A stretch of 64,000 nt of DNA, from assembly GCA_964291415.2 (NCBI GenBank), contig OZ219917.1, forward strand, positions 1 to 64,000, in the 5' to 3' direction. Shown here piece after piece: positions 343-22,587 of this stretch. A program made the translations under genes and the position numbers. The DNA is from Alphaproteobacteria bacterium. GTDB taxonomy: Bacteria > Pseudomonadota > Alphaproteobacteria > SP197. The notes under the pieces are model-generated. The model saw only the letters and a program-made list of their open reading frames with translations. It ran no database searches and had not been told where the DNA came from. Numbering within the stretch: the stretch's first letter is position 1; every line of letters starts with the position of its first letter.

Positions 343-386
343 ACCGGACGCCACGCCAAGAGTCACAACGCCAGGAGCGTCGACGG

Positions 387-1988: not shown

Positions 1989-1989
1989 G

Positions 1990-3038: not shown

Positions 3039-3043
3039 AACCC

Positions 3044-3979: not shown

Positions 3980-4008
3980 CGACATCACCTGCCAAGGAGG
4001 GTCAACTC

Positions 4009-6375: not shown

Positions 6376-6395
6376 GAAGGATTGACTGTGGTGGC

Positions 6396-7136: not shown

Positions 7137-7324
7137 CGTTCCATCTCCCTGATCCTGATCATCATGTCATGCGCCATCCGTTTCGGCCTTGTCAAACCTC
7201 CTCCGCGCTCCCCGGCCATGACAGCTCGGGATCGGTCCCATCGAATTGAGGCAACGAGGGGAATCCCCGTCACACGGGGGGCGAGAACGCACGCACACCG
7301 CCCACACCAGAGGGACTCGGGCCG

Positions 7325-8092
7325 CTACGGCCTCTGGTGATCCCGAAGTGCCTGTCCGAAGGCCTCGAAGAGGGCCCGGTTGACGGGATTGGTCTCTGGG
7401 TCGTACTCGGCGTGCCACTGCACTCCCAGAGCGAAGCCCGGCGCGTCGGCAATGCGGATCGCCTCGATCGTGTCGTCCTCCGCCACACCCTCGACGATCA
7501 CGCGGTCTCCCGGCTCCACGATGCACTGACCGTGGAGCGAATTGACGCGTATGGTCTGCCGGCCGAGGATCTCCTCAAACACGCCTCCCGCTGTGAAACG
7601 GACCTCGTGCCTGTCGGCAAACACGACGTCCGGATCGGGATGAACCTCCCCGTTTTCCAGCCGGGGAGCCCGGTGATTCATCCGCCCCGGCAGATCTCCG
7701 ATTTCGGGGTGAAGAACGCTCCCGAAGGCCACGCCGAGTTCCTGGATGCCGCGGCACAGGCCAAAGATCGGCACGCCCCTTTCGACACAGGCCTGCGCCA
7801 CGGACAACGCCACCGTGTCCCGTTCCCGGTCGTAGGGTTCGTGGTCCGGGTGAGGATCGACATTGAAACAGGAGGGGTGAACGTTGGCGCGCGCCCCGGT
7901 CAGCAGGATTCCGTCAACGGCATCAATCAGCGAGGCGACATCGGTGATGTCGGGCGTTCCGGCGAACATCAAGGGCAGGGCCCCGGCGACTTCCGCCACG
8001 GCAGAGAGATTCTTCTCCCCGGTCATCTGGGTCACATAGTGATCACTGACGAGATACCTGGAGCCGATGACACCGACGCGGGGTCTCGACAT
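7325..8092 (-). CDS. Gamma-glutamyl-gamma-aminobutyrate hydrolase family (peptidase C26)
   Basis: DGILLTG, FGLCRGIQE nucleophile elbow, VNSLHGQ, GVQWHAE. Confidence 0.88.
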   Translation of the reverse strand: MSRPRVGVIGSRYLVSDHYVTQMTGEKNLSAVAEVAGALPLMFAGTPDITDVASLIDAVDGILLTGARANVHPSCFNVDPHPDHEPYDRERDTVALSVAQACVERGVPIFGLCRGIQELGVAFGSVLHPEIGDLPGRMNHRAPRLENGEVHPDPDVVFADRHEVRFTAGGVFEEILGRQTIRVNSLHGQCIVEPGDRVIVEGVAEDDTIEAIRIADAPGFALGVQWHAEYDPETNPVNRALFEAFGQALRDHQRP

Positions 8093-8513
8093 CGTTGGGT
8101 CTGGTTCCTCCATGTTGCGCCAATGGTCAGCCCGGGGGCGAGAGGGGTTCGTAAAGCGGGAGCCGACGTGTGTCCACCCGATCTTCAGCGTGATCAGTTC
8201 ACAGCGAACCCGGTCCACCACCAGAAGACTCGGCATCGCCCACCCGGCATTTGCGCACCACATCACGATCTCCCGCTTCCACGTGGTCAACAACAGGGGC
8301 GGTCGACAGCCTCCTGCTGGCCGTCTTCATGTCGTCCACAAGTGATCGATTCCTGCGCTTTCGATGTTCGGGCTGCGGGTGGAACGCAAGCACCGGCAAG
8401 AGGGTTCTGCCGGGAGGGATGGGCCGACACGCGACGGCTGCCGGATCATCCGCCGAAGCCGCCTCGGTCCTGACTTCGATACCCTTGCTTTCAAGGAAAA
8501 AACGACATCGAGG

Positions 8514-8835
8514 CTAACGGCCAAGAACGGTGTCGATGCCGGCCAGCAGATCGAGCTTGGCCGACCCGATCCGGCCGACGCGTGCTTCGAGAAGCAACCG
8601 GTCGAGTGCGACGATCCCGTTCGCGACGGAATCTCTTGGCAGGCCTGTCATTGCGGCGGTCAACAGCACGTTTCCCGGTGCCTCCGCCCACCGAAGACTG
8701 CTCGTGAGCGGCATGCCAACCGGCTCCGGTTCAGAGCATCCCCCTGGACGACGATAACCGGCCGGAATACCCGGCCCCCTAGCCTGCGGGTTCGGGCAAC
8801 CCGGCCCAGCACACATCACCCTGGGAGATCACCAT
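8514..8835 (-). pseudogene. PemK/MazF-family toxin, disrupted
   Basis: MVISQGDVCWAGLPEPAG followed by an in-frame TAG, then RPVIVVQGDALNRSRL and PLTSSLRWAEAPGNV..GLPRDSVAN in other frames. The start overlaps the antitoxin stop. Confidence 0.8.
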
Positions 8836-9065
8836 TCGTTGTCGGCGAGCACCCGCCTGCCGGCGGCGGCGAGGAAGACGTCATCATTACCGTCAATCTC
8901 GTCACATACCCGGTTCATGGCGTCGGTGACCTCGTCATGCATATGGCGCGCGAGATATTCGTCGAGCGCTGCGGCGTACACTTCGCTTCGGGACCGCCGT
9001 CCCAGCAAGGCCAGTCGTTCGGCGCGTTCGAAAATGTGGTCAGGAATGGATACTGCCGTTTTCAT
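8829..9065 (-). CDS. Ribbon-helix-helix antitoxin (MazE6/ChpI-like)
   Basis: MKTAVSIPD.IFERAERLA...SRSEVYAAAL; a TATACT lies just upstream of the ATG. Confidence 0.85.
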   Translation of the reverse strand: MKTAVSIPDHIFERAERLALLGRRSRSEVYAAALDEYLARHMHDEVTDAMNRVCDEIDGNDDVFLAAAGRRVLADNEW

Positions 9066-9275
9066 ACCCGTAGTATAACTCTCTTCCACGGCCGGTGGTC
9101 AAGGGCTTTCCGGACGAAGTTCCCTGCAAGTCCGCACAGAGAGCGGACACCGGAGCTCACGGGCAGCCTGCGATTGACGATGCGCGGGGCGCACGCACAC
9201 CGACCGGCAGTCCCTGGGAAAGAACCGAGCGCACGCTGCAGGAAGGCAGCTGGCCTGACCTGGATTCAACCGGCG

Positions 9276-10658
9276 TCAGGCAATCTCCGAGGCGAAACGG
9301 TTCTCTGTCTCGGTGAGACTCTCGTCGATGATTCCGACAATGGAATCAATCTCGTCCCTGGTGATGACCAGCGGCGGACCGAGATGGATTTCACCCCAGA
9401 CACGGGTCAGCAGACCGCGGTCGCGGATGCGTGCCGCAAGATCCTTCGTGAAGGCGTGAGTCGCGCCCCACGCCTTGCGTGTCGTCCTGTCCTTCACGAG
9501 GTCGACGGAGCACATGAGCCCGATGCCCCGCACGTCACCAACCGTGGGATGGGATTCAAGGGTTTGCAGACCCTCCATGAGGTAGGCGCCGCTCTGGGCG
9601 CTGCGTTCCACGAGATTCTCGTCCTCGATGATCTGGATGTTCCGCAGGGCGGCAGCGGATGCCACCGCGTGCCCGCCGAATGTGAGCAGATGCTCGATGG
9701 GCTTTCCTTCTCCGGTGAACCCCTCGAAGACCTCCTCGCGCGCCATCACGCCGGCTATCGGCGCATACCCGCTCGACAGGCCCTTGGCGATGGTCATCAG
9801 GTCGGGCACAACGCCGAAGTGCTCGCCGGCGAACATCTTGCCGGTCCGTCCGAAGCCGTTGATCACCTCGTCCATGATCAGGAAAACGCCGTGCCGGTCG
9901 CAGATGTCGCGCAGCATCTGCCAGTAGCGGGGCGACGGCACGTGGTTGCCGTTGGAGGTCGATACCGGTTCGCCGATCACCGCGGCAACGGTCTCAGGTC
10001 CCTGGTTCTCGATTTCCTGTTCGACATAGCGCGCGCACATCAGATCGCCGTCTTCGCCCGTCAGACCAAAGTCGTTGCGGTAGCGGTTGGGCGAGGGCAC
10101 ATGGCTGACGCCGTACATGAAGGGGCCATGATACTTCTCGACACGTGACGCGGTGAGGCTCAGCGCGCCGTGGGTCATGCCGTGGTAGGAACCGCGCCGG
10201 GCGATGATCTTGTAGCGCCTCGGGAACCCGCGCATAGCCTGCGCCTGGCGGGCAATCTTGATCGCCGTTTCCACGGCCTCGGAACCGCCCGAGACGAGGA
10301 AGACGCGCGACAGGTCACCTGGCGTGATATCGGAGAGTTTCCCGGCAAGGCGGACCGCCATATCGTTGCTGCAGGTCGACGCAGCCGTATAGGCGACACG
10401 CCCGGCCTGCTCTGCCATGACCTCACCGATCTCCCGCCGCCCGTGGCCGGCGTTGACGACGAAGAGTCCGGATAGGCCGTCAAGACAGGCCCGGCCGCGC
10501 ACATCCCAGAGCGTTGATCCCTCGCCGCGGGTGAACACCCGCATGCCTTCCTGCTCCGTCAGTTCTTCCCAGTTCTCTTCGGAACCGTGGAACCAGAGGT
10601 GGCGCGCCGCCGCCTTCTCCACCTCATGCATCGTCTCCGGGAGTCCGTGTTCGGCCAT
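9276..10658 (-). CDS. Class III (omega) aminotransferase, polyamine/beta-alanine/taurine type
   Basis: SGGSEAVETAIK, SYHG, IMDEVINGFGRTG, IAKGLSSGY, LTFGGH. Confidence 0.9.
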   Translation of the reverse strand: MAEHGLPETMHEVEKAAARHLWFHGSEENWEELTEQEGMRVFTRGEGSTLWDVRGRACLDGLSGLFVVNAGHGRREIGEVMAEQAGRVAYTAASTCSNDMAVRLAGKLSDITPGDLSRVFLVSGGSEAVETAIKIARQAQAMRGFPRRYKIIARRGSYHGMTHGALSLTASRVEKYHGPFMYGVSHVPSPNRYRNDFGLTGEDGDLMCARYVEQEIENQGPETVAAVIGEPVSTSNGNHVPSPRYWQMLRDICDRHGVFLIMDEVINGFGRTGKMFAGEHFGVVPDLMTIAKGLSSGYAPIAGVMAREEVFEGFTGEGKPIEHLLTFGGHAVASAAALRNIQIIEDENLVERSAQSGAYLMEGLQTLESHPTVGDVRGIGLMCSVDLVKDRTTRKAWGATHAFTKDLAARIRDRGLLTRVWGEIHLGPPLVITRDEIDSIVGIIDESLTETENRFASEIA

Positions 10659-10961
10659 GATCAAGTCCCTTCTTCCTGCCCTTCAGGCGCGGTCGTACCG
10701 TGCACTGTCAGCACAACCCTACAGCAGTCGCACCGTACGCGGAACGCCGCACGTCATGCGCCCCTGAGCGTAACCGGTGGCTCGTTTCGAATCCCTGCGA
10801 TGGACATTGGCCGCCATTGCCTTTCTCCCAGGCGACCATGGACGAGCCATCCGCGCCGAACGCAATGGGCGACAAGGCCTGGTGCGAACCGGAAGCGACG
10901 GCGGTGGGCACAGACGCGCCGACTTCGGACGCACGGAGAGGGTGAGCTGAGGAGGGAGAGG

Positions 10962-11103
10962 CTACGTCTTCGGGGCGAACGGATTGACGACAACGAGGCT
11001 GTCGATCCGACGGCCGCCCCGGTAATCTTCAGTAAAGGGCGTTTCGCAATGCGCTCGGTTCCTGGGCATACATCGGAACATTGGTGGCGAACACTACCGT
11101 CAC
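10962..11103 (-). pseudogene. PIN-domain (VapC) toxin remnant with a large internal deletion
   Basis: N-terminus VTVVFATNVPMYAQ (cf. FxDTNxLxYA) is joined out of frame to the PIN C-terminus CETPFTEDYRGGRRIDSLVVVNPF. The start overlaps the antitoxin stop. Confidence 0.72.
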
Positions 11104-11330
11104 CGCGCGTTGGCTTCCTCCCGGTCGAAGACGTTGTCGGCAGGGATGGGTAGCGCACGGGCGCGCATTCGTTCGATAGCGCGCGACCTGCGTTCGTCGC
11201 TGGCAACGGCGAGGCGTTCGGGGCTTGCGGACACGATCTCAAGGTGGTCGCCTGCCTTCAGGCCGAGATCATTCACCAAAGTTCTGGGCAGGCGCACCGC
11301 AAGACTGTTGCCCCATTTCGAAACGCGCAT
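11100..11330 (-). CDS. AbrB/MazE/SpoVT-family antitoxin
   Basis: MRVSKWGNSLAVRLP...LGLKAGD...FDREEANAR. Confidence 0.9.
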   Translation of the reverse strand: MRVSKWGNSLAVRLPRTLVNDLGLKAGDHLEIVSASPERLAVASDERRSRAIERMRARALPIPADNVFDREEANAR

Positions 11331-11585
11331 GGATATCCTCCAGCGATACACTCACGTCTGTTGATATCCTGAGTGTTTTCCAGTCGGCTTCAAGCCGACC
11401 TTCTTTCTGCAGCCTGCGTGTCCGCAGGCTTTCCATGGCATGGCGCCGGCCTCGTTTCGCGGACGCATGATTGGCCCCTGGGTTGACCTGCGACGCTCCT
11501 AACAGCCAACACGCCGGGTTGTTCATCGCCACAGGGAGTACCCCCTTCTTGCGCCGAAACATGAATGCTTGCGTCATCTGCCTTG

Positions 11586-11605
11586 CCCATATCAAACGAT
11601 ATGGG
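11586..11605. promoter_or_regulatory. Inverted repeat, probable autoregulatory operator of the vapBC operon
   Basis: Perfect 8-bp inverted repeat CCCATATC-aaac-GATATGGG, 12 nt before the antitoxin ATG. Confidence 0.55.
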
Positions 11606-11617
11606 TAGTATGGGCCG

Positions 11618-11866
11618 ATGAAGACGACGCTGGACATCCACGATGAACTGTTGGCGAGGGCCAAGCGTCACGCCAGGGAAACGGGACGCCCTCTGCGCGC
11701 TGTGATCGAGGACGGACTTCGCCGCGCACTCGCGCCTGGGGCACCTGACCGCGGATACAAGCTGCCCGATCTCAGAACGGGGGATCCGGATGCGAGCGAT
11801 CCGCTGGAACAGTATTCCTGGCCAGAGTTGCGCGACGTGATCTACGGCGATCCCGGAACGCGGTGA
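11618..11866 (+). CDS. vapB: VapB-type antitoxin (DUF2191-like, RHH)
   Basis: [19 protein letters not shown]...VIEDGLR; overlaps the toxin start (GTGA). Confidence 0.85.
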
Positions 11867-12342
11867 TCGCCGTTGACACCAATCTGCTGGTCCATGCGCA
11901 CCGGCGTGAATCGCGGCTCGGTGACGCGGCGCACGCGGTCATGACCCGACTTGCCGAAGGAGAACGCGCCTGGGCCATTCCATGGCCATGCTGCTACGAA
12001 TTCCTGAGCGTCGTGACGAACCGTCGCATCTGGAAGGACGAAGCGACCACGCCGGATCACGCGTGGCGCCAGTTCCAGGCCTGGGCGGCGTCGCCGTCGA
12101 GTCGCATGATCGGCGAGACCGACGATTTCCTGGAGATCCTGCAAAGGTTCGTGAACCGGCCTCACGTCGTCGGAGGAGTGGTTCACGATGCGCGCATCGC
12201 GGCGGTGTGCGTTGCGCACGGCGTTGAGGCGTTGCTTACGCGAGACCGCGACTTCGCCCTGTTTCCGGAATTGCCCACGCATGACCCCTTCGCGGTTGGC
12301 CAGCGCTTGCGTTCGACACGTGGATCAGATCGGGACCGATGA
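11863..12342 (+). CDS. vapC: VapC PIN-domain ribonuclease toxin
   Basis: [24 protein letters not shown] and LTRDRDF retain the acidic PIN residues. Confidence 0.9.
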
Positions 12343-12551
12343 GGCCACTCGGCACTCTCAATCGATCAAGATCAGGCTGGCCCCGATTCGAGGTGTGAGC
12401 GCCCATCCGGAACCCATCGAGCTTGATTGCGAACCGTTGCATGCCAGGCGCAGGCACCATCAGTCGACAGACACGTGGAGGACGGATTCGAGTGCAGTCA
12501 TGAGGCTCCTCCCGGCGCGTTTGGCAGGAGCCTCCGGTGACCGGTCCGGAA

Positions 12552-13349
12552 TCAACCGGTCGTGTTCCCGCGGGACGGAACCGGTGTCAGCGGCTGACGG
12601 CGGCCGAAGTAGCGCATGTGAATCTCGTCGCTGAAGAGTTGATCGGGCTCCGTCTCGTAACTCAGCGTCAACATGCGGCGCGACGGCGCGCTGCGGACCG
12701 GTGCGACCCGGTGGAGCGCGCGGTGACCGTTGAAGATCGTCAGCGTACCCGGCGGCACATCGAGTTCCCGCACGAGCGACGAGCGGCCGGCCACCAGGTC
12801 GTCGATGAGGGAGGCAAGGTCCGGGCGATGCCGGATGTCGGGAATGTACTCGAAGGCGCCGCCGGAACCCGCCTGGCGAAGCATGATGGTGACCGCACCG
12901 TCATTGGTATCGAAGTGCCATCCCAACTCGTCGCCGCGCGCGTACTCGCTCACCATGCACGACGCGATGGCATCCGCGTTGCGGTAGTAGGGACGCCGTT
13001 CCAGCACCTCCGACACGAACCGCGTGAGCCCGTCCCACAGGAAGAGGCGGTGCGGCGGCGATTCGAAGGGCATCTGGTCGAAGCCTGCGCAGACAAGGCT
13101 GACCCGGGTCTCCTCGCCCATGCCGGGCGGAAAGGCGTTGCGGTGGTCCAGCCGCCGGAACCCCTCGCGACACAGCCTGTCGGCCTCTTCTTCCATGGCC
13201 GCGACTCCGTTGCTGTGAAGGAAGCCGGGCATGGTGAAGACACCGTCGGCTGCGAGGCGTCGGCGTCCCTCGCGCACGAGTGCGACCGCCTCGGGACTCG
13301 CGATATCCGCGATCGGATAGCGATCGAGATCGACGAGATCTCCCACCAT
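12552..13349 (-). CDS. 2-oxoglutarate/Fe(II)-dependent oxygenase (BesD/HalD-like fold, hydroxylase-type HxD)
   Basis: LGWHFD...GGAFEY...LHRVAPV....RRML: HxD..H triad and 2OG-binding Arg. The N-terminal DLDRYPI is typical of this clade. Confidence 0.75.
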   Translation of the reverse strand: MVGDLVDLDRYPIADIASPEAVALVREGRRRLAADGVFTMPGFLHSNGVAAMEEEADRLCREGFRRLDHRNAFPPGMGEETRVSLVCAGFDQMPFESPPHRLFLWDGLTRFVSEVLERRPYYRNADAIASCMVSEYARGDELGWHFDTNDGAVTIMLRQAGSGGAFEYIPDIRHRPDLASLIDDLVAGRSSLVRELDVPPGTLTIFNGHRALHRVAPVRSAPSRRMLTLSYETEPDQLFSDEIHMRYFGRRQPLTPVPSRGNTTG

Positions 13350-13362
13350 CGCGTGGTCCGCG

Positions 13363-13908
13363 CTAGACGACGGCGCGGCCACTGCCGATCCTCGGGGACG
13401 GACGTCCGCCGTCCGAAAACACCATGACGGCCAGAATCTCGTCGGGGCGCGGCGCATCCGCGACCATGACCGTCATCGTGTCGAGCTCGTTGAATGACCA
13501 GATCTCGTCCTTGTGGGCGAGCGGCACGTCGATGGCGGCGCCGGCCGACGACACCTTGGCCACCGACGGGATGAGCGCTTCGCCTCCGCCACAGGCGGCG
13601 CGCATGGGCTTGCCCAGCTTGGGATGGAGGATGCCGGCGGCGTGCTCGACCTCGCCATGGACACCGACGATGGCCGCCTTGCCGTAGGCGACGGGCGCGC
13701 GGCGGAGCATGTCCACGGCAGCGGCGGCAAAGGCTTCGCCGAATGCCAGGCCGATGTCGGCGAGATCGGAAAGGTCGGCCACGAAGCGCCCTGCCGCCGG
13801 GTTGTCAAGGACGGCGATGGCGGCAACCCGCGTCACCGGCTCCGGGGCGGCGTGACCGGCTTCCGCGTGAACCGTCTCGGTGATGAAGAGAGACTTGCGG
13901 CAGTTCAT
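13363..13908 (-). CDS. 'Amino acid synthesis' family protein (DUF1185)
   Basis: NPAAGRFV.DL, YGKAAIVG..GEVEH, DVPLAHK and DAPRPDEI are family hallmarks. Overlaps the FHMPC dehydrogenase stop. Confidence 0.85.
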   Translation of the reverse strand: MNCRKSLFITETVHAEAGHAAPEPVTRVAAIAVLDNPAAGRFVADLSDLADIGLAFGEAFAAAAVDMLRRAPVAYGKAAIVGVHGEVEHAAGILHPKLGKPMRAACGGGEALIPSVAKVSSAGAAIDVPLAHKDEIWSFNELDTMTVMVADAPRPDEILAVMVFSDGGRPSPRIGSGRAVV

Positions 13909-14861
13909 GGCTCACCCTCCCCCGCTGCCTCGAGCGCGCGGCGCACCGCCACCAGGCGCCGGGCCCTCGCCGCCGCAAGCGAGGCTGCTTCGCCCCGATC
14001 GTAGGCGTAGATGCCCTCTCCCGTCTTCAGCCCGAGCCGGCCTGCGGCGATCTTCTCTGCCGCCCACGGGCTGACATCGCCGCGGCTGCAGAGATCGCGG
14101 TTGAGATAGCCTGCCACGGAGCCATAGATGTCGAGCCCGGCCATGTCGAGGAGGCTCATCGGGCCGACGACCGCCAGCTTGTAGCCGATCCCCCAGCTGA
14201 CACAGGTATCGAGGTCTTCCGCATCGACCACGCCGCGCTCGACAAGGTCGAGGGCCTCGCGCATGACGGCGTAGAGAATGCGGTTCTCGACAAAGCCCGG
14301 AACATCGCGCTTCACGCGCACCGGGATGAGATTGAGGCGGCGCACGGTCGCCATCATCCATTCGACCGTGTCGGCCGACGTCTCGTCACCGGCAACGACC
14401 TCGACGACGGGGATGATGTGGGGTGGATTGGACCAGTGCATGCCCACCACCCGCCCGGGGGAGGGCAGGCCCTCCTGGAGCCTGGTGATGGGGATCCCCG
14501 ACGTGTCCGATGCGAGAACACAACTCCCGGACACCAGGCCGGCAATCTCCGCCAGAACCGCGCGCTTGAGATCGACCTCTTCGGGCACGTTCTCGATGAC
14601 GAGATCAGCATCGGCGACGGCATCCTCGAGGCTGCCCGTCAACACGACATCGCTCGCCGAGCCTTCTGCGGAAACGTCGAGATCGTCGAGCACGCCGGAG
14701 ATGGCAGGCAGTTTCAGGCGCGTTGCCTCGATGGCCCCGGCGCTCGCATCGTGGCCCCTGACGGTCATGCCGGAGCGCGCCAGCACCGCGGCAATGCCGG
14801 CGCCCATGGTGCCCAGACCGATGACGGCGGCGATGCTCACGCCCGCCTCCGGGTCAGGCAT
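13905..14861 (-). CDS. 5-formyl-3-hydroxy-2-methylpyridine-4-carboxylate (FHMPC) 5-dehydrogenase (3-hydroxyacyl-CoA dehydrogenase fold)
   Basis: IGLGTMG, ASDTSGIPIT, GMHWSNPPHIIP, DLDTCVSWGIGYK.AV.GPM.LLDMAGLDIY and RARRLVAVRR match recalled M. loti Mlr6793. Confidence 0.82.
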   Translation of the reverse strand: MPDPEAGVSIAAVIGLGTMGAGIAAVLARSGMTVRGHDASAGAIEATRLKLPAISGVLDDLDVSAEGSASDVVLTGSLEDAVADADLVIENVPEEVDLKRAVLAEIAGLVSGSCVLASDTSGIPITRLQEGLPSPGRVVGMHWSNPPHIIPVVEVVAGDETSADTVEWMMATVRRLNLIPVRVKRDVPGFVENRILYAVMREALDLVERGVVDAEDLDTCVSWGIGYKLAVVGPMSLLDMAGLDIYGSVAGYLNRDLCSRGDVSPWAAEKIAAGRLGLKTGEGIYAYDRGEAASLAAARARRLVAVRRALEAAGEGEP

Positions 14862-14889
14862 GAAGAACGATTTCGGGAGGCAGACATCG

Positions 14890-16005
14890 CTAAAAGATGG
14901 TCGTCTCGAGGATGTCGACACCGTGCTGGCGGTCGACGAGATAGATGAGACCGCGGTCATCGATGGTGACATCGTTCGAGGAAGCACGGTCCGCTCCCGG
15001 TGGCGGCTCGGGCAGATAGTGGGCCACCTCGCGCGGACGGAAGGGATCGGCAAAATCCACCAGGCGCAGTCCCTGGGCAAACCAGGCGAAGGGCACCACT
15101 GTCGTGCCGGTCAGGCGCTCGCTGGGCTGATGGCATCCGGTCATCGGCTGCTGCGGTTCGCCGTCGGCATCGACGCCCTCGACCTGGAATGTCGAGACGG
15201 GAATCGGATTGCCTTCATCGCTGATGTCGTAGACCCAGGTGAATGCGGGCGCCGCCGGATAGAGCTTGGCCACATCCTCATCGGCCACGATCATGATGTC
15301 GCGCCCCTTGAGTTTCATGGGCATCCTCAGGCAGGTGTGCGTGGGATGCGGGAACGACGGACTGGTGTTGCGTCCGGAGACGAGGCGAGGCCTCGTCATG
15401 TCGGAGATGTCGAGAATGAAGAAACCGTGATGCCAGTAGCTGACATTGAGACGTGATCCCGTCCTCAAGGGATGGTGGCAACGCGGCGGCACGTAGTTCG
15501 ACCAGGGATAGGCCTCGCCCCCGGCCTGCCACTGGCCCTCGAGCCACCAGCGCCCGACCTCCTCGGGCCGGGCCGGATCGGCAAGGTCGAGGATCATGAC
15601 GATGTTGCCGACATAGCCCTCCGCCGTGGGAGAGATGTACGCGTGGCGGCCATCGAAATCGTAGCGGTGCACGCCCCTGCCCGCCGTCACCCACTTGGTG
15701 ATCAGGCGCGGCTGGCGGGGGTTCTCCACGTCCCAGATCGCCAGACCGCCCTCGGGCGTGCCGTCCACCTGGCCGAGCCGCTCGTGATTGACGATCATGA
15801 TGCCGTCAGCGACCCGCACCTTGTGCGAGTGCATGCCTTCGGGGAGCTCGATGGTTGCCAGGCACTGTGGCCGGGCCGGATCACCGACATCCCAGATCGA
15901 GGTGCCGGCGGGCGGGCGCATGTGACCGACATAGAGGATGCGGCCATCGATCCAGACCTGTCCCCCACCGGGGCAGTCGATATGTCCCACGCGGTTGACG
16001 GTCAT
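14890..16005 (-). CDS. LVIVD-repeat beta-propeller protein
   Basis: Repeated I(W/L)D(V/L/I).DP..P blades with His motifs (HSHK, GVHR, CHHP, PTHT, GCHQ). ATGA overlap with the upstream cupin. Confidence 0.8.
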   Translation of the reverse strand: MTVNRVGHIDCPGGGQVWIDGRILYVGHMRPPAGTSIWDVGDPARPQCLATIELPEGMHSHKVRVADGIMIVNHERLGQVDGTPEGGLAIWDVENPRQPRLITKWVTAGRGVHRYDFDGRHAYISPTAEGYVGNIVMILDLADPARPEEVGRWWLEGQWQAGGEAYPWSNYVPPRCHHPLRTGSRLNVSYWHHGFFILDISDMTRPRLVSGRNTSPSFPHPTHTCLRMPMKLKGRDIMIVADEDVAKLYPAAPAFTWVYDISDEGNPIPVSTFQVEGVDADGEPQQPMTGCHQPSERLTGTTVVPFAWFAQGLRLVDFADPFRPREVAHYLPEPPPGADRASSNDVTIDDRGLIYLVDRQHGVDILETTIF

Positions 16006-17123
16006 GGGGCGAGACGCACGGTTTCGCCGCCGGCCGTGCGGCCCCAGCGCTTGTAGAAACCGAGCCTCGTCAAGGCCGGCTCGTCGCTGGCGACGAAGAG
16101 CACGATCGCCGACGATGTCTCGTTGACATGCTCCACCCAGCTGCCGCCCGGCACGGCAAGGGTATCGAACCGGCGCCAGTCGTGACGCTCGCCATCGATG
16201 ATGGAGTGGCCCGGGCCGCCCTCGAAGGGGGCAACCAGCTGGCTCGCCGTCTGCTTCAGCGCCTGGGTGCGCTCGCCGGGACGAACCATCTGGGCAAAGA
16301 AGGTCATGGTGCGGAACACGGGCTCGCCGTCGAGCGGGTTGACGTACTCGACCTTGATGCCGTCATGGGGATCGCCGTCGTGATCGGCGTTCTCCTCGAG
16401 AAACTCCCGCATCGGCTCCCAGCGGTAGGCATACATCGGCGACGCCATTCCGGTCCCCCGCATGTGGTCGACGAAGCACGCCTTGAGACCGCCACGACCG
16501 TAGATCTCCCGCGAATACTCGGGCCCGTACCGCGCCGTCTGCCGGTCCTTTGACACGTCATCTTCCCGGTAGTCGTGCTCGAAATAGATGGCATTCAGGG
16601 TCTCGACGAGGGGGAGGTCGAGGACCGAGAGATTCACCGCCGCCTCGTCACCCATGTTGCCGTGGTTGTGCCAGGTATCGTGCGGCGTCAGCACCATGTC
16701 GCCGGGGCCGAAGACGATGTCCTCCCCCTCGACGCCGGTGAAGTTCATGGCACCCGTCAGCCCGAAGCGAATGGCGTTGGGAGAGTGCCTGTGAGGCGGC
16801 ATGACCTCGCGGGGATCATTGAGGCGATAGGCGGTGTACATGGTCGTCACCGTGGCGCGGCGCGGCGCCAGGCCGGGATTGACGAGGATGAGCGAGCGGC
16901 GTTCCGAATCCGACATCGAGACGAGGTCGGCGGAACGCCTGAGCAACGGCTCGATGACGCCGTCGTAGTCCCAGACATGGGGAACCGCCTTCGATACCGC
17001 CATCAACTGGCGCACCTCGTCGTGATCGACATCGGTCGTCGTCGCCCAGAACGGAAACATCGAGGCGCCATGGACGTCGTCGTAGAGACTCTTCAGCGCC
17101 GCCTCGCGGTCGTTCGTCGCCAT
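16002..17123 (-). CDS. Gentisate/salicylate 1,2-dioxygenase-like bicupin
   Basis: ERRSLILVNPGL, PPHRHSPNAIRF, GDMVLTP..TWHNHGN, LDLPLV and EYVNPLDG give the 3-His cupin signature of the GDO family. Confidence 0.85.
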   Translation of the reverse strand: MATNDREAALKSLYDDVHGASMFPFWATTTDVDHDEVRQLMAVSKAVPHVWDYDGVIEPLLRRSADLVSMSDSERRSLILVNPGLAPRRATVTTMYTAYRLNDPREVMPPHRHSPNAIRFGLTGAMNFTGVEGEDIVFGPGDMVLTPHDTWHNHGNMGDEAAVNLSVLDLPLVETLNAIYFEHDYREDDVSKDRQTARYGPEYSREIYGRGGLKACFVDHMRGTGMASPMYAYRWEPMREFLEENADHDGDPHDGIKVEYVNPLDGEPVFRTMTFFAQMVRPGERTQALKQTASQLVAPFEGGPGHSIIDGERHDWRRFDTLAVPGGSWVEHVNETSSAIVLFVASDEPALTRLGFYKRWGRTAGGETVRLAP

Positions 17124-17251
17124 GTCCTGACCTTCACCTGCCGTGGCGCAGTCTACAAGCCCCCGGCCGCATGCGCGACCGCGCCAGGGCGCGGTTGTCC
17201 GATCCGGTCGTGGACCTGTAGTGTTTGCAGCGCATTCTGGGAGGAGGAACA

Positions 17252-18133
17252 GTGCAGCACACGATACGTCCGCGGCGCAGCGTTCTCTACATGCCGGGAT
17301 CCAACGCCCGGGCACTCGAAAAGGCCAAGACACTTGCCGCCGACGGGCTCATCTTCGACCTCGAGGACGCCGTCGCTCCCGACGCGAAGGAGGAGGCCCG
17401 CAGCCTTGCCTGCTCGGCCGTGGCCGCAGGCGGCTACGCCGAACGCGAGATCATCATCCGCGTCAATGGCCTGACGACGCCATGGGGGCGTGACGACATC
17501 ATGCGGGCGGCGGGCTCCGGCGCCCACGCCATCCTGTTGCCGAAAGTCGAGGGAGCCGGATACATCCGCGAGGCACTGTCCCTGATGGACGTCGCCGGAG
17601 CCCCGCAGTCCATGGCGGTGTGGTGCATGATGGAAACGCCGCTCGGCATCCTCCATGCGGAACGGATCGCCTCGGCCAGCCCCAGGATCGGCGCCCTGGT
17701 CATGGGAACCTCGGATCTCACCAAGGATCTGGGAGCGCGGCACACACCCGATCGCGTCGCCATGGTGACGAGTCTCGGCACATGCGTTCTGGCGGCGCGG
17801 GCCTTCGGTGTCTCAATTCTCGACGGCGTGTTCCTCGACCTCCAGGATGACAGCGGATTCGAGGCCGCCTGCATCCAGGGCCGCGACATGGGATTCGATG
17901 GCAAGACCATCATCCACCCACGTCAGATCGATCCGGCCAACAACGCGTTTGGACCGACTCCCGAGGAAGTTGCCTGGGCGCGGCGCATCATCGATGCCCA
18001 TACCGAGGCTTCGTCCAGGGGCGAGGGGGTGGTCGTGGTCGACGGCAAGCTGATCGAAAACCTCCACGTGTCGGAAGCGAGGCGCACCCTAGCCCTTGCC
18101 AACGCCATCGAGCAGACGACCGGCGGTTCATGA
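17252..18133 (+). CDS. mcl2: CitE-family CoA ester lyase, probably (3S)-malyl-CoA thioesterase
   Basis: RPRRSVLYMPGSNARALEKA, FDLEDAVAP, MGFDGKT.IHP.QI; gaggagg RBS; adjacent to mch. Confidence 0.72.
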   Translation: MQHTIRPRRSVLYMPGSNARALEKAKTLAADGLIFDLEDAVAPDAKEEARSLACSAVAAGGYAEREIIIRVNGLTTPWGRDDIMRAAGSGAHAILLPKVEGAGYIREALSLMDVAGAPQSMAVWCMMETPLGILHAERIASASPRIGALVMGTSDLTKDLGARHTPDRVAMVTSLGTCVLAARAFGVSILDGVFLDLQDDSGFEAACIQGRDMGFDGKTIIHPRQIDPANNAFGPTPEEVAWARRIIDAHTEASSRGEGVVVVDGKLIENLHVSEARRTLALANAIEQTTGGS

Positions 18134-19179
18134 GCGCCCGCAGCGGCTACTTCCTCGAGGACTTCGACGTCGGACGGGTCTTTCGTCACGCCACGCCGCG
18201 CACCATCACGGCCGGTGACCGGTCGCTTCATGTCGCTCTCACGGGATCGCGTTTCGCCATGGCGTCGGCCGACAGCTTTGCCGCGTCCTGCGGCTTCGCC
18301 CGGGCGCCGGTGGATGACGTCCTGGTCTTCAACATGGTCTTCGGCAAGACGGTCCCCGACATTTCGGCCAACGCGATCGCCAATCTCGGTTACGCCTCCG
18401 GGCGGTTCACAGCACCGGTCCATGAAGGGGACACGCTCGATGCCGCATCCGAAGTGATCGGCAGGCGGGAACTCTCCAATGGCCGGTCCGGCATCGTCTG
18501 GGTGCGTTCGACCGGACGCAACCAGGATGGCCGGACCGTGCTCGACTACGTGCGCTGGGTGATGGTGAACAAGCGCGATCAGGCGAGTCCGGCACCCGAG
18601 GCCATCGTGCCGGAGCTTGCCGATGCGGTCGATCCCGCCTCGATCGCGATCCCGGACGGACTCGATCTATCAGGGTACGACTGGGCTGCAGCCGGCAACG
18701 GCACGGACTGGAACTCCCTCACGTGCGGTCAGCGGTTCGACCACGTTGACGGCATGACCATCGAGGAAGCCGAGCACCAGATGGCGACGCGCCTCTACCA
18801 GAACACCGCGCGGGTCCACTTCGATCAGCACCGGTCGTCCGCCACGCGCTTTGGCCGGCGCATCGTCTACGGCGGCCACATCATCAGCCTCGCCCGGGCC
18901 CTCTCGTTCAACGGCCTTTCCCATGCCTGCCTCGTGGCTGCCCTCAACGGCGGCCGGCATACGGCCCCGACCTTTGCCGGAGACACCATCTATGCCTGGT
19001 CGGAGGTGCTGGCAAAGGCGGAAGTCGAAGGCCACAGGGACGTCGGCCTGGCGCGCCTGCGCACCGTGGCGGCGAAGAATCACCCATGCGACGACTTCCC
19101 CGATCACGATGACGATGGCCGCGACCATCCCGACAAGGTGCTGGATCTTGACTACTGGGTGGTGATGCCCCGGCGTTGA
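18130..19179 (+). CDS. mch: Mesaconyl-CoA (2-methylfumaryl-CoA) hydratase, double MaoC
   Basis: HATPRT, VFGKTVPDIS.NA.ANLGY, HVDGMTIEEAEH..ATRLYQNTARVHF. Confidence 0.88.
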   Translation: MSARSGYFLEDFDVGRVFRHATPRTITAGDRSLHVALTGSRFAMASADSFAASCGFARAPVDDVLVFNMVFGKTVPDISANAIANLGYASGRFTAPVHEGDTLDAASEVIGRRELSNGRSGIVWVRSTGRNQDGRTVLDYVRWVMVNKRDQASPAPEAIVPELADAVDPASIAIPDGLDLSGYDWAAAGNGTDWNSLTCGQRFDHVDGMTIEEAEHQMATRLYQNTARVHFDQHRSSATRFGRRIVYGGHIISLARALSFNGLSHACLVAALNGGRHTAPTFAGDTIYAWSEVLAKAEVEGHRDVGLARLRTVAAKNHPCDDFPDHDDDGRDHPDKVLDLDYWVVMPRR

Positions 19180-19213
19180 CCCAAAGCGCGCCGGGACAAT
19201 AGACTCAGCAACC

Positions 19214-19627
19214 ATGTCGACTGCTCAACCAGAAGGCGAAGCCGGCGCCGCGCGGCCGCTGTCGCCGCACCTCCAGGTCTACCGACCGCAGATCACATCC
19301 GTTCTCTCCATTACCCATCGCGTGACCGGCGTGCTGCTCTCGATCGGCATCGCCGGTCTCGTGGCCTGGCTGGCGGCTGCGGCGGCAGGACCGGAGAGCT
19401 TCGCAGTCGCGCGCGAGATTGCCGGTTCGTGGCCCGGACTGCTCATCCTCTTCATCTGGTCCTTGAGCCTCGTCTACCACCTGCTGAACGGCATCCGGCA
19501 CCTGGTGTGGGATACGGGACGCGGTCTCGCGCTGAAGCCGGTGAGGGTGTCGGGATGGGCAGTCGTCGGCGGCACGGTCATCCTCACCACCCTTGCCTGG
19601 GTGCTCGGCGCCACGGTGGCCGGCTAG
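19214..19627 (+). CDS. sdhC: Succinate dehydrogenase cytochrome b556 subunit
   Basis: RPLSPHLQVYRPQ.TS.LSI.HR.TG; HLLNGIRHL.WD. Confidence 0.95.
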   Translation: MSTAQPEGEAGAARPLSPHLQVYRPQITSVLSITHRVTGVLLSIGIAGLVAWLAAAAAGPESFAVAREIAGSWPGLLILFIWSLSLVYHLLNGIRHLVWDTGRGLALKPVRVSGWAVVGGTVILTTLAWVLGATVAG

Positions 19628-19975
19628 ATGGCGAACCCGAAGCAAGGCGCGCTGCACTGGCGCCACCAGCGCCTGTCGGCGCTTGCCCTCATTCCCCTCA
19701 CCCTTGTCTTCATCGGCCTGCTGCCGACCCTCGCGACTGCCGATCATGAAGCTGTTGTAACTCTCATGGGGACCGTCATCGTTCCGGTCTTCCTCGTGGC
19801 GCTCCTGGGAGCCGGCCTCTGGCACATGAAGCTGGGTCTCGAGACCATCATCGACGACTACGTGGGACGGGGATCCTGTGGTTCCATGCTCAAGGTTCTC
19901 GTCATCGCTGCCGTGGTCGTGCTGGCGGCTGTCGCCGTCGTCTCGCTCGTCATGCTCACGGTGGGCCACGCATGA
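19628..19975 (+). CDS. sdhD: Succinate dehydrogenase membrane anchor
   Basis: HW..QRLSA, HMKLGLE.IIDDYV; operon position. Confidence 0.92.
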
Positions 19976-21762
19976 AGACCGCCTACACCATTGTCGATCA
20001 TGCCTACGACGTGATCGTGGTCGGGGCCGGCGGGGCAGGCCTGCGCGCCACCCTGGGCCTGGCCGAAGCCGGCCTGTCGACTGCCTGCATCACCAAGGTC
20101 TTCCCGACCAGGAGCCATACCGTCGCCGCCCAGGGAGGGATCTCGGCCGCCCTGGGCAACATGGGCGACGATGACTGGCGCTACCACATGTACGACACCG
20201 TCAAGGGCTCCGACTGGCTCGGTGACCAGGATGCGATCGAGTACATGTGCAAGGAGGCTCCGGCCGCGGTGATCGAACTCGAACACTACGGCGTGCCGTT
20301 CTCACGCACCGCTGAAGGCACCATCTACCAGCGCGCCTTCGGCGGCATGACCACGGAGTACGGCAAGGGCACGGCCCAGCGGACCTGCGCCGCTGCCGAC
20401 CGCACCGGCCATGCAATCCTGCACACGCTCTACCAGCAGTCCCTGCGCCACGAAGCGCAGTTCTTCATCGAGTACTTCGCCCTCGACCTCATCATGGACG
20501 ATGACGGCGCCTGCCGGGGCGTGATGGCCTGGTGCCTGGAGGACGGCACCCTGCACCGGTTTTCCGCGGCGCTGACCATCCTCGCGACCGGCGGATACGG
20601 CCGCTGCTACCTGTCGTGCACCTCGGCGCACACCTGCACGGGCGACGGCAACGGCATGGTGCTGCGCGCCGGGCTGCCGCTGCAGGACATGGAGTTCGTC
20701 CAGTTTCACCCGACCGGGGTCTACGGCGCCGGTGTCCTCATCACGGAGGGCGTGCGAGGAGAGGGCGGCTACCTCGTCAACGGCGAGGGCGAGCGGTTCA
20801 TGGAGCGGTACGCCCCTTCGGCCAAGGACCTGGCGAGCCGCGACGTGGTGTCGCGCTCCATGACGATCGAGATTCGCGAGGGACGCGGCGCCGGCAAGGA
20901 GAAGGACCACATCCTGCTCAAGCTTGACCATCTCGATCCCGATGTCATCGCCGCGCGTCTTCCCGGCATCTCCGAGAGTGCCAGGATCTTCGCCGGCGTG
21001 GACGTGACGCGCGAGCCGGTTCCGGTGCTGCCGACGGTCCACTACAACATGGGAGGGATCCCGACCAACCATCACGGCGAGGTGGTGGTGCCGCGGGACG
21101 GCGATCCCGACGCCGTGGTGCCGGGTCTCATGGCGTCCGGCGAGGCGGCCTGTGTTTCGGTGCACGGCGCCAACCGCCTGGGATCCAACTCGCTGCTCGA
21201 TCTCGTCGTGTTCGGCCGCGCCGCGGCCCTGCGCGCCGCCAGCGTTGTCACGCCCGGCGGCACACCAGAAGACCTGCCGACCGGCGCCGGCGACGCGACG
21301 CTCGAACGATTCGACCGGTTGCGCCATGCCGACGGCGGCACGCCGACGGCCCGGCTGCGCGAGATGATGCAGCGCACCATGCAGAATGACGCCGCGGTGT
21401 TCCGCACCGAGTCATCGCTCCAGGAGGGATGCCGCAGGATGGCGGAGGTCTTTGCCGGGCTCTGCGACATCCAGGTCAGCGACCGCTCCCTGGTTTGGAA
21501 CACCGACCTCATGGAGACATGGGAACTCGACAACATGCTGCGGCAGGCCGTGGTCACCATCGTCTGCGCCGAGCACCGCAAGGAAAGTCGCGGCGCCCAT
21601 GCCCGGGAGGACTACACGGAACGCGACGACGAAAACTGGATGAAGCACACCGTCGCCTGGCTTGACGACGACGGACACCACAGGATCGATTACCGGCCCG
21701 TGCATCTCGACACGCTGACCGACGAGGTGGAGAACATTCCGCCCCAGTCCAGGGTGTACTGA
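19972..21762 (+). CDS. sdhA: Succinate dehydrogenase flavoprotein
   Basis: [40 protein letters not shown]. Confidence 0.98.
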
Positions 21763-21804
21763 CCATGCCGGGTTCCCGTCCGCCACGCACCGGAGCGATT
21801 CGCC

Positions 21805-22587
21805 ATGGCTAAGTTCAGACTGCCCAGGAACTCGAGGGTGAGGGTCGGCAAGGCTCATCCCGTGCCGCAGGGCAGCTCCCGGCGCACCCGCTTCAAGATC
21901 TACCGCCATGATCCCGACAGCGGCGACGGCCCGCGCCTCGACACCTACGAGGTCGATCGCGACACCTGTGGCGAAATGGTTCTCGACGCCCTCATCACGA
22001 TCAAGAACGAGATGGATTCGACGCTCGTCTTCCGCCGGTCGTGCCGCGAGGGCGTGTGCGGTTCCTGCGCCATGAACATCGATGGCGTCAACACGCTCGC
22101 CTGCACGAAACCCCTCGACGACATCTCCGGCGACGTCCGGGTCTACCCCCTGCCCCACATGCGGGTCATCCGGGACCTCGTCACCGACGTCTCGCATGTC
22201 TACGGGCAGCTCGCCTCGGTCAAGCCATGGCTGCGCTCGCAAAGTGCCGCGCCGGAGGCAGGGGAACGCCTGCAATCGCCGGACGAGCGCGAGAAACTCG
22301 ACGGCCTCTACGAGTGCATCCTGTGTTTCTGCTGCCAGACGGCCTGCCCGAGCTACTGGTGGAACGGCGAGACGTTTCCGGGTCCCGCCGTTCTCCTGCA
22401 GGCCTACCGGTGGGTGGCCGACAGCCGCGACGAGGCAGGAGACGAACGGATCGCCGAGCTCGACGGCGCCGACGAGCTCTTCCGCTGCCGCACCATCGTC
22501 AACTGCACGAATGCCTGCCCCAAGGGCCTCAATCCGGCCCGCGCCATCGCCGAGGCCAAGAAGCGCGCGGCACAGTCGCCCCGCTGA
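21805..22587 (+). CDS. sdhB: Succinate dehydrogenase iron-sulfur subunit
   Basis: [32 protein letters not shown]...CPKGLNP. Confidence 0.97.

Follow-up and report, generated by a model that had tools for sequence, protein, structure and literature searches.

A cupin and LVIVD-repeat gene module as a probable alternative lower branch of vitamin B6 catabolism in Alphaproteobacteria

The stretch of DNA analysed here, referred to throughout as the window, comprises positions 1-64,000 of contig OZ219917.1 in assembly GCA_964291415.2 (Alphaproteobacteria bacterium, SP197) and has a GC content of about 65%. It is likely, in our view, that the window carries the genes of an alternative lower branch in the catabolism of vitamin B6 (pyridoxine/pyridoxamine), one in which a cupin-family protein and an LVIVD-repeat propeller protein replace the last three enzymes of the known pathway. 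The genes in question lie at 12552-17123, where five co-directional genes on the minus strand encode the cupin, the LVIVD propeller, a dehydrogenase for 5-formyl-3-hydroxy-2-methylpyridine-4-carboxylate (FHMPC), an AA_synth/DUF1185 protein and a 2-oxoglutarate (2OG) oxygenase (Table 1). An earlier note on this DNA had proposed that the cupin and LVIVD proteins form a flavin-independent route for opening the B6 ring. This interpretation is supported by comparative genomics, namely by the gene content of the locus, the strict co-occurrence of the genes concerned, the exclusion of the canonical enzymes, a cassette swap, and a cupin that keeps its catalytic residues and has lost the gentisate-specific ones.

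Bacterial vitamin B6 catabolism is regarded as a solved, eight-enzyme textbook pathway, established from very few organisms. The enzymes of this pathway (pathway I) are PNOX or ppaT, pldH, 4-pyridoxolactonase, 4-pyridoxate dehydrogenase, FHMPC dehydrogenase, the decarboxylase for 3-hydroxy-2-methylpyridine-4,5-dicarboxylate (HMPDC), MHPCO and AAMS hydrolase. The strongest evidence for functional replacement of the last three, and for HMPDC as the branch point, comes from a cassette swap within one genus. Three genomes of a phylum sample (G644, G742 and G842) belong to a single genus, and their dehydrogenases score almost alike (about 560 bits). G742 and G842 carry MHPCO (86% identity) 4.8 kb from the dehydrogenase and have no cupin orthologue; G644 lacks MHPCO, with the cupin (65% identity) lying 2.3 kb away from the dehydrogenase. 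The loci of G644 and G742 are collinear, with 82-86% nucleotide identity over ppaT, the lactonase, the importer and FHMPC dehydrogenase, and then diverge. After the dehydrogenase, G742 continues with a 4-pyridoxate dehydrogenase homologue, HMPDC decarboxylase, a PEBP gene, AA_synth, MHPCO, AAMS hydrolase and PNOX, and G644 with GST, RidA, LVIVD, cupin, a 4-pyridoxate dehydrogenase homologue, GntR and PNOX. The two 4-pyridoxate dehydrogenase homologues are 78% and 85% identical to the GMC oxidoreductase of a canonical locus, and PNOX is retained in both genomes. Only enzymes that consume HMPDC have been exchanged and all earlier steps kept, which suggests that the module stands in for the exchanged enzymes in function and that the two routes part at HMPDC.

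Mutual exclusion of the two sets of genes was also seen on a wider scale. Among 401 genomes sampled evenly from the class (G240 included, counted as a non-carrier only), the FHMPC dehydrogenase was found at E<=1e-135 in ten genomes, with paralogues of about 235 bits in two more. The genomes with cupin orthologues (61-77% identity, E<=2.5e-154) are precisely these ten; the next best match is 42% identical, and the 73 genomes matching the cupin at E<=1e-40 do so mostly at 31-40% identity. LVIVD orthologues (68-77%) are again present in the same ten, with a 59% homologue in another context in one further genome. The cupin, LVIVD and dehydrogenase genes are adjacent in all nine carriers besides the window's genome, and a congener of the window's organism (G033) has neither the dehydrogenase nor the cupin and LVIVD clade. 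All ten carriers of the class sample are thus cupin-type and none canonical; in the phylum sample, the three carriers besides the window's genome comprise one cupin-type and two canonical.

A scan of one genome per species over about 186,000 species, with an alignment of the ten FHMPC dehydrogenases as query, returned 561 relatives. The best 80 of these were taken with 10 kb flanks, and all counts given below out of 74, 70 or six loci come from this set. The cupin (71) and/or LVIVD (73) gene is present at 74 of the 80 loci, the misses falling mostly at contig ends, and none of the 74 has MHPCO, HMPDC decarboxylase or AAMS hydrolase within 10 kb either side of the dehydrogenase. At the other six loci (Labrenzia sp. 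OB1, Hoeflea marina, three Hoeflea metagenome-assembled genomes (MAGs) and Mesorhizobium sp. Z1-4) cupin and LVIVD are both missing and the three canonical enzymes are all present. Culturable bacteria with a cupin-type locus include Dongia mobilis CGMCC 1.7660 (L116) and Tistlia consotensis USBA 355 (L076). When the genomes behind the 80 loci and six sample genomes were searched in full, MHPCO at 87-100% identity was found only in the six canonical genomes. The cupin and LVIVD clade therefore tracks the FHMPC dehydrogenase from genome to genome and excludes MHPCO, the pattern by which the earlier note had suggested that its proposal be judged. A DNA similarity search of plasmids with the FHMPC dehydrogenase gave no match at E<=1e-60. 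Cupin-type B6 clusters were also seen on MAG contigs labelled Flavobacteriaceae (L074), Candidatus Acidoferrum (L097) and Gammaproteobacteria (L080); the dehydrogenases of these three group with alphaproteobacterial ones, and the labels could reflect mis-binning or lateral transfer.

The window's genome assembly is 4.44 Mb in five contigs and is 100% complete by marker genes, with 9% 'contamination'. It was searched with canonical enzymes from the Labrenzia locus (L094), which are near-identical to the solved M. loti proteins and were identified by their PDB matches (MHPCO to 3alj, E 1.7e-227; HMPDC decarboxylase to 2z7b, E 5.5e-133; AAMS hydrolase to 3kxp, E 6.9e-134). No tblastn match to MHPCO was found in the genome at E<=1e-5, and the sole full-length FAD_binding_3 protein in a Pfam/NCBIfam survey of the genome is a UbiH-type hydroxylase and not MHPCO. 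For HMPDC decarboxylase and AAMS hydrolase, the best tblastn matches in the genome (27% identity for the former, 37% over 104 aa for the latter) are at the level of paralogues. Seven class II aldolase members, to which NCBIfam gives no finer name, are encoded there, at no more than 27% identity to the canonical HMPDC decarboxylase. By homology the upper half of pathway I is present in full (ppaT, pldH, 4-pyridoxolactonase, a putative 4-pyridoxate dehydrogenase of the GMC family and FHMPC dehydrogenase), and the decarboxylase, MHPCO and hydrolase that would complete it were not found. The earlier note had described these lower genes as missing from the window, where tblastn likewise found no MHPCO, HMPDC decarboxylase or AAMS hydrolase. 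It had also held that a canonical lower pathway elsewhere in the genome, together with a cupin unlinked to B6 genes, would undo its proposal; neither was found.

The putative 4-pyridoxate dehydrogenase lies at C2:17561-19219 and is 58% identical to the GMC oxidoreductase found at the 4-pyridoxate dehydrogenase position of the Labrenzia locus, a label given by position to a protein for which Pfam reports GMC_oxred only. The start of contig C2 (1-16803) is the reverse complement of window positions 1-14800 (about 98% identical, one 2.1 kb indel), so that the two contig ends probably overlap; beyond window position 1, contig C2 continues with the binding protein of the importer, the GMC enzyme and a PdxK-like kinase. 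The gene for this PdxK/Phos_pyr_kin-like kinase (C2:19265-19999, L061) adjoins that of the GMC enzyme. Other contig ends match the insides of other contigs at 94-99.9%; the pattern resembles that of a MAG in which strain variants or overlaps were left unresolved, and would account for the 9% 'contamination'.

On sequence the dehydrogenase of the window is most probably an FHMPC dehydrogenase and would make HMPDC. Its best PDB match is FHMPC 5-dehydrogenase of M. loti (4om8, E 5.8e-106), the next structure lying at 1.6e-37, and four relatives from cupin-type loci score above the cut-off of 500 bits for the corresponding family, NF042925. In a quick tree with SH-aLRT support the six canonical dehydrogenases form one clade (support 99) nested within the cupin-type sequences and sister to those of two cupin-type Hyphomicrobiales MAGs (support 99). 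This nesting argues that the enzyme does the same job in both types of pathway.

The order of genes in the module varies, and in all 70 loci that have the three genes they are co-directional. The commonest order is cupin-LVIVD-RidA-GST-dehydrogenase (40 loci). At 12 loci the order is cupin-dehydrogenase-LVIVD, with no further B6 gene within 10 kb, and at ten loci, all close relatives, it is that of the window (cupin-LVIVD-dehydrogenase-AA_synth-2OG). The remainder are cupin-LVIVD-GST-dehydrogenase (three loci), cupin-LVIVD-dehydrogenase-AA_synth (two), cupin-LVIVD-dehydrogenase (two) and cupin-dehydrogenase-LVIVD-RidA-GST (one). Flanking genes differ among the seven trio-only loci examined, which suggests that cupin, LVIVD and FHMPC dehydrogenase are the invariant core. 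In five of five trio-only genomes tested, an orthologue of 4-pyridoxolactonase (59-62% identity) is encoded elsewhere.

Around this core the accessory genes come and go. RidA is present at 42 and GST at 46 of the 74 cupin-type loci; the RidA of the clusters appears by eye to have the C-terminal Arg motif. AA_synth/DUF1185 (PF06684, 195.3 bits against a cut-off of 27, E 7e-58), whose solved homologues 2qtp and 3byq are both labelled 'uncharacterized', is found at 19 of the 74 cupin-type loci, at all six canonical loci and in G742, and is thus not a specific partner of the cupin. The earlier note had assigned both LVIVD and DUF1185 to the processing of the ring-opened product; LVIVD belongs to the conserved core with the cupin, and for DUF1185 the distribution corrects the note. 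At all six canonical loci and in G742, AA_synth/DUF1185 and a PEBP/YbhB-family gene lie between MHPCO and HMPDC decarboxylase (for example L094:6424-7544 and L163:6353-7450), two genes to which the textbook pathway assigns no step. The 2OG gene is limited to 11 of the 74 loci, ten of them with the gene order of the window. Its product matches HalD (PF23169, 44.5 bits, cut-off 26) and falls below the cut-off for 2OG-FeII_Oxy_3 (PF13640, 24.2 against 27); an H-F-D with a distal H (HxD...H motif) can be read by eye in the translation, and no match was found in the PDB. NCBIfam returned no match for the LVIVD, AA_synth or 2OG proteins.

The cupin belongs to the superfamily of gentisate 1,2-dioxygenase (GDO) and salicylate 1,2-dioxygenase (SDO). 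Its scores on the families TIGR02272 (gentisate 1,2-dioxygenase, 216.5 bits) and NF049978 (5-aminosalicylate dioxygenase, 214.1 bits) lie far below the cut-offs of 442.1 (equivalog) and 650, and in the PDB it matches 2d40 (E 2.8e-47), with full-length alignment to 2d40, 3bu7 and 4fag. The window protein was aligned with 35 orthologues, taken as every second of 69 full-length sequences ranked by identity; SDO numbering equals window cupin numbering plus 8. Invariant in the clade are the Fe ligands H111, H113 and H152, together with R119 (Arg127), H154 (His162), R75 (Arg83), A117 and L168. The protein thus has the two cupin domains, the 3-His Fe(II) site and the equivalents of Arg127, His162 and Arg83 that characterise GDO/SDO bicupins. 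In SDO and GDO, as described in two papers, catalysis requires Arg127, the carboxylate of the substrate is bound by Arg83, Gln108, Arg127 and His162, and Asp174 together with residue 104 serves to recognise the 5-OH group of gentisate (PMC10306065; PMC11264262). Gln108, Trp172 and Asp174 are there stated to be conserved in all known GDOs (PMC11264262; PMC10306065). In all 36 clade members these three residues are replaced by R100, N164 and S166; Arg89 is a further clade-specific residue. Twelve GDO-like outgroups from the sample genomes, which are homologues only, have Gln (eight) or Ser (four) at the first position, Trp at the second in 11 of 12 and Asp at the third in all 12. The clade is about 31-36% identical to nine of these outgroups and about 40% to three intermediates. 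From these residues the cupin thus appears to keep the machinery for cleaving an o-hydroxy-carboxylate and to have lost the contacts specific for gentisate, and the positive charge it has gained (Arg100, Arg89) is as might be expected for a substrate with a second carboxylate. An AlphaFold2 (AF2) model of the cupin was mediocre (pLDDT 71.5) and was not used for a fold search.

The LVIVD protein matches PF08309 (26.7 bits, cut-off 20.2), has no signal peptide by eye and is read as cytoplasmic. Over 37 aligned sequences the mean column identity is 78%, and the invariant residues include H28, H59, H61, H74, E75, H113, E129, C176, H177, H178, H192, H193, H220, H223, D242, E243, D244, C291 and H292. 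In the AF2 model (pLDDT 85.4, pTM 0.88), which has seven four-stranded blades, these residues seem to return, blade after blade, at corresponding ends of strands, as read from the strand map and not from a measured geometry. Profile search of the PDB returned only the phosphotriesterase Sb-PTE (5hrm/5ioj, E 2.5e-10). Foldseek with the model likewise placed 5hrm first (E 1e-16 to 1e-17, TM 0.71-0.73), ahead of generic WD40 propellers at 7e-9 and worse, and a search of a protein atlas gave only LVIVD clusters without function. Sb-PTE has a binuclear Mn site where its central tunnel opens at the top. Like this only solved relative, the LVIVD protein is probably a metalloenzyme. Paralogues of it (38-59% identity) lie beside genes for a TPP enzyme and an aminotransferase, class II aldolase-family genes or TctABC tricarboxylate transporters, for example in genomes without B6 genes at L157:7533-8699, L158:7312-8481, L159:7365-8549 and L161:4197-5471. 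These contexts suggest that polycarboxylic acids are the substrates of a wider family of cytoplasmic enzymes.

From these features we infer a substrate, a site of cleavage, an activity for the LVIVD protein and a set of products. The 3-oxido and 4-carboxylate groups of HMPDC would coordinate Fe(II), in the manner of salicylate in SDO, and the cupin would cleave between C3 and C4 with O2, with neither flavin nor NAD(P)H used in this step. C3 would become a carboxylate and C4 part of a 2-oxo acid, to give HOOC-C(CH3)=N-CH=C(COOH)-CO-COOH, a tricarboxylic imine/enamine in which a pyruvate-imine unit is N-linked to an aminomethylene-oxaloacetate unit. The LVIVD enzyme may then hydrolyse this product on either side of the nitrogen, and perhaps also decarboxylate it, to yield two fragments. 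The first, a 2-iminopropanoate/pyruvate unit, would give pyruvate and ammonia, either spontaneously or through RidA. The second, an aminomethylene- or formyl-oxaloacetate unit, should readily lose CO2 and give pyruvate and formate, or a C4 acid; GST, where present, might isomerise or otherwise process the unsaturated C5 fragment. RidA enzymes deaminate intermediates of the 2-iminopropanoate type, their standard substrate, and the canonical cleavage between C2 and C3 gives an N-acetyl group and needs no RidA. As C3-C4 cleavage would leave a 2-iminopropanoate unit, the presence of RidA at more than half of the cupin-type loci fits well. Such imines also hydrolyse spontaneously, so that the route can do without RidA, as it would in the window; a RidA homologue (44%) is encoded elsewhere in the genome.

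A number of points weigh against this proposal. HMPDC is without the para-hydroxyl of gentisate, and we know of no GDO-type enzyme that opens a pyridine ring. The score of the window's dehydrogenase on NF042925 (470.9 bits) is just below the cut-off, the next family scoring 197, and the sequence match of the LVIVD protein to Sb-PTE is confined to the repeat segments. In the cluster of the window RidA and GST are missing, with DUF1185 and the 2OG oxygenase in their stead. Because the 80 loci were ranked by how closely their dehydrogenases resemble cupin-type ones, 74 to six overstates the true ratio, and the search for HMPDC decarboxylase and AAMS hydrolase was genome-wide in the window's genome and covered 10 kb either side of the dehydrogenase in the others. 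Two further points, a weak match to 4-pyridoxate dehydrogenase in some genomes and the presence of MHPCO-like paralogues in others, bear on specific alternatives and are taken up with these.

The cupin could act within the B6 lower pathway on an earlier intermediate, 4-pyridoxate or FHMPC, with the homologue of FHMPC dehydrogenase then oxidising a ring-opened aldehyde or alcohol. The chemistry allows this, since the 3-OH/4-COOH pair is common to 4-pyridoxate, FHMPC and HMPDC, and in five trio-only genomes the best GMC match to the enzyme of the canonical locus, the putative 4-pyridoxate dehydrogenase, reaches only 45-48%, with no clear orthologue. It is nevertheless unlikely in the light of the cassette swap, in which G644 and G742 both keep FHMPC dehydrogenase and a close 4-pyridoxate dehydrogenase homologue and differ only in the enzymes that follow HMPDC. 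The position of the canonical dehydrogenases within the cupin-type ones gives no indication of a change of substrate, and Arg100 and Arg89 of the cupin clade would fit an additional carboxylate. The earlier note had left the choice among 4-pyridoxate, FHMPC and HMPDC undecided; the swap and the retained 4-pyridoxate dehydrogenase favour HMPDC and count against the other two.

A second possibility is that the cupin and LVIVD proteins belong to B6 catabolism without opening the ring, for example as a non-oxidative decarboxylase/isomerase pair or in a detoxification side branch, and that an unrecognised enzyme, possibly an MHPCO-like monooxygenase, performs the cleavage. Cupins catalyse many types of reaction, and FAD monooxygenases with 38-43% identity to MHPCO are encoded elsewhere in 18 cupin-type genomes. 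We regard this as improbable, slightly more so than the preceding alternative: no MHPCO-like paralogue is present in the window's genome (none at E<=1e-5) or in most cupin-type genomes (none at E<=1e-10), every catalytic residue of the ring-cleaving GDO/SDO enzymes is kept in the cupin, and the cupin is the sole oxygenase candidate within the invariant trio. The contexts of two of the MHPCO-like paralogues were inspected, one beside a peptide ABC transporter and the other among unrelated genes, and show no link to B6; as candidates for a missing ring-opener these monooxygenases thus found no support there. In many trio-only genomes two FAD monooxygenase genes lie in tandem whose products are 40-43% identical to MHPCO (PRK06847/HpxO-like; for example L143:7808-10074), and the tandem pair that was inspected adjoins a peptide-type ABC transporter.

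That the cupin is an ordinary gentisate/salicylate 1,2-dioxygenase placed beside B6 genes by coincidence is highly improbable, for although its best family matches are gentisate and 5-aminosalicylate dioxygenases and its best structures GDO, its scores reach about half of one equivalog cut-off (216 against 442) and a third of the other (214 against 650), its clade has replaced three residues conserved in all GDOs, it strictly co-occurs with and adjoins FHMPC dehydrogenase across many families, and by Pfam the window does not show the maleylpyruvate/fumarylpyruvate hydrolase context.

Table 1. Positions of features in the window
Feature	Position	Strand	Family or basis and assignment
Bicupin, 373 aa	16002-17123	-	Cupin_2; B6-linked clade of the gentisate/salicylate 1,2-dioxygenase superfamily; proposed HMPDC ring-cleaving dioxygenase
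LVIVD-repeat seven-bladed beta-propeller, 371 aa	14890-16005	-	PF08309; proposed metal-dependent hydrolase acting on the ring-fission product
FHMPC 5-dehydrogenase, 317 aa, 3-hydroxyacyl-CoA-dehydrogenase family	13905-14858	-	NF042925, 4om8
AA_synth/DUF1185 protein, 181 aa	13363-13908	-	PF06684; accessory
2OG-Fe(II)/HalD-like oxygenase, 265 aa	12552-13349	-	PF23169; lineage-specific accessory
pldH, pyridoxal 4-dehydrogenase, SDR type	6396-7136	-	NF047923, 390.4 bits (cut-off 325)
ppaT, pyridoxamine-pyruvate transaminase	4815-5993	-	NF046070, 607.9 bits (cut-off 600)
4-pyridoxolactonase	4009-4824	+	NF047925, 450.3 bits (cut-off 325), residues 237-505 of a long open reading frame
ABC importer, C-terminal end of Bmp-type binding protein	4-324	+	Pfam, tblastn
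ABC importer, ATPase	387-1988	+	Pfam, tblastn
ABC importer, two permeases	2016-3038, 3044-3976	+	Pfam, tblastn

The five genes of the module are tightly packed and co-directional, as the earlier note had described from the sequence and as the open reading frames and family matches bear out. It had given all junctions as overlaps or gaps of less than 30 bp. This is true of three of them (4 bp overlaps for cupin/LVIVD and for dehydrogenase/AA_synth, and a 13 bp gap between AA_synth and 2OG) and not of the gap between LVIVD and the dehydrogenase, which at 31 bp is one base over. A GAAGG ribosome-binding site lies 8 nt upstream of the cupin ATG, and a scan of 11800-17600 for promoters and terminators gave none exceeding shuffled controls. 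The three B6-catabolic genes that had been placed 5-8 kb away are pldH, ppaT and 4-pyridoxolactonase, all of which score above the curated NCBIfam cut-offs. An ABC importer next to the B6 genes is kept at 37-43 of the 74 cupin-type loci.

Several neighbouring genes are of more restricted distribution. A PIN-domain gene (11863-12342, plus strand) with a small overlapping upstream open reading frame (11618-11866) has the look of a VapBC-like toxin-antitoxin pair; it separates the upper B6 genes from the 2OG gene and is present at one of the 74 related loci only. Between pldH and the 2OG gene (7325-10664, minus strand) lie a C26 gamma-glutamyl hydrolase-like (PuuD-like) gene and a class III aminotransferase gene, which recur at seven and nine of the 74 loci respectively, in close relatives only. 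Divergent from the cupin gene (17225-22587, plus strand) are genes for a CitE/RipC-like C-C lyase and a MaoC/RipB-like hydratase, resembling an itaconate-degradation pair, followed by sdhCDAB; this block is kept at seven of the 74 loci, again in close relatives only.

In the samples examined, most carriers of the hallmark FHMPC dehydrogenase are without the last three textbook enzymes and have the conserved module instead. To our knowledge, the members of the LVIVD repeat family described to date are surface proteins and one phosphotriesterase. No literature linking the cupin or the LVIVD protein to B6 catabolism was found in open full texts; subscription journals were mostly outside this search, and a prior description is possible. 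In a recent preprint on B6 catabolism, pldH and the lactonase are treated as sources of signals rather than as parts of a lower pathway, and B6 catabolites are discussed as signals in soils and oceans (bioRxiv 10.64898/2026.01.20.700305). NCBIfam release 20 has equivalog matches for ppaT, pldH, the lactonase and FHMPC dehydrogenase, with the cupin far below and the LVIVD protein matchless, and public records name these two proteins 'cupin domain-containing protein' and 'hypothetical protein'. On strong genomic inference the evidence points to a variant of a known pathway that we have not found described. A bolder form of the proposal can be advanced only tentatively, as one that falls a little short of an even chance: that the cupin route, rather than that of MHPCO, is the common means of opening the B6 ring in Alphaproteobacteria, that the cupin is the first gentisate-type 3-His enzyme to cleave a pyridine (HMPDC, at C3-C4), leading to pyruvate units, ammonia, formate and CO2, and that the LVIVD protein founds a family of cytoplasmic metalloenzymes for polycarboxylic ring-fission products. 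If the reading is correct, it would add a new ring-cleavage chemistry for pyridines, give functions to proteins filed under the two uninformative names above, change the marker genes for B6 turnover in soils and oceans, give the LVIVD repeat family its first metabolic role and open it to enzymology. The prediction is directly testable with three recombinant proteins and known substrates.

Hydroxylated pyridine rings are also opened oxidatively in the NicX/2,5-dihydroxypyridine pathway and in B6 pathway II (5-pyridoxate dioxygenase, FAD-dependent). The enzyme families and substrates of both differ from those of the cupin module. Sb-PTE of Sphingobium sp. TCM1 (5hrm), the top fold match of the LVIVD protein, has the LVIVD-type seven-bladed propeller in common with it, but identity is about 20%, Sb-PTE is about 120 residues longer and the proposed class of substrate is entirely different. 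The cupin itself shares with the gentisate, salicylate, 5-aminosalicylate and 5-nitrosalicylate 1,2-dioxygenases (2d40, 3bu7, 2phd) the bicupin fold, the 3-His site and the equivalents of Arg127, His162 and Arg83. Cleavage between the carboxyl- and hydroxyl-bearing carbons, as expected of GDO/SDO-type enzymes, is what is proposed here, on a pyridine dicarboxylate rather than a benzoate. The gentisate pathway, in which GDO is followed by a glutathione-dependent maleylpyruvate isomerase and a hydrolase, likewise offers a parallel to the GST that shares an operon with the cupin at 46 of the 74 loci, although the cluster GST matches maiA weakly (57 bits against a cut-off of 171) and the cluster of the window has none. 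Where the gentisate pathway uses a FAH-family hydrolase, an LVIVD propeller would serve here, with RidA added.

The closest comparison is with pathway I of Mesorhizobium loti MAFF303099 and Pseudomonas sp. MA-1, to which the upper half of the route described here is orthologous through FHMPC dehydrogenase. The importer, GntR regulator and GMC oxidases of pathway I are also found at many cupin-type loci. Its last three enzymes, a class II aldolase-type decarboxylase, the FAD monooxygenase MHPCO and an alpha/beta hydrolase, appear to be replaced by the cupin and LVIVD proteins, with or without RidA and GST. In pathway I the ring is cleaved between C2 and C3 by an NADH-dependent flavoenzyme, whereas cleavage between C3 and C4 by a non-haem iron dioxygenase is predicted for the cupin module; and where pathway I yields acetate and succinic semialdehyde, the products expected here are of the pyruvate type.

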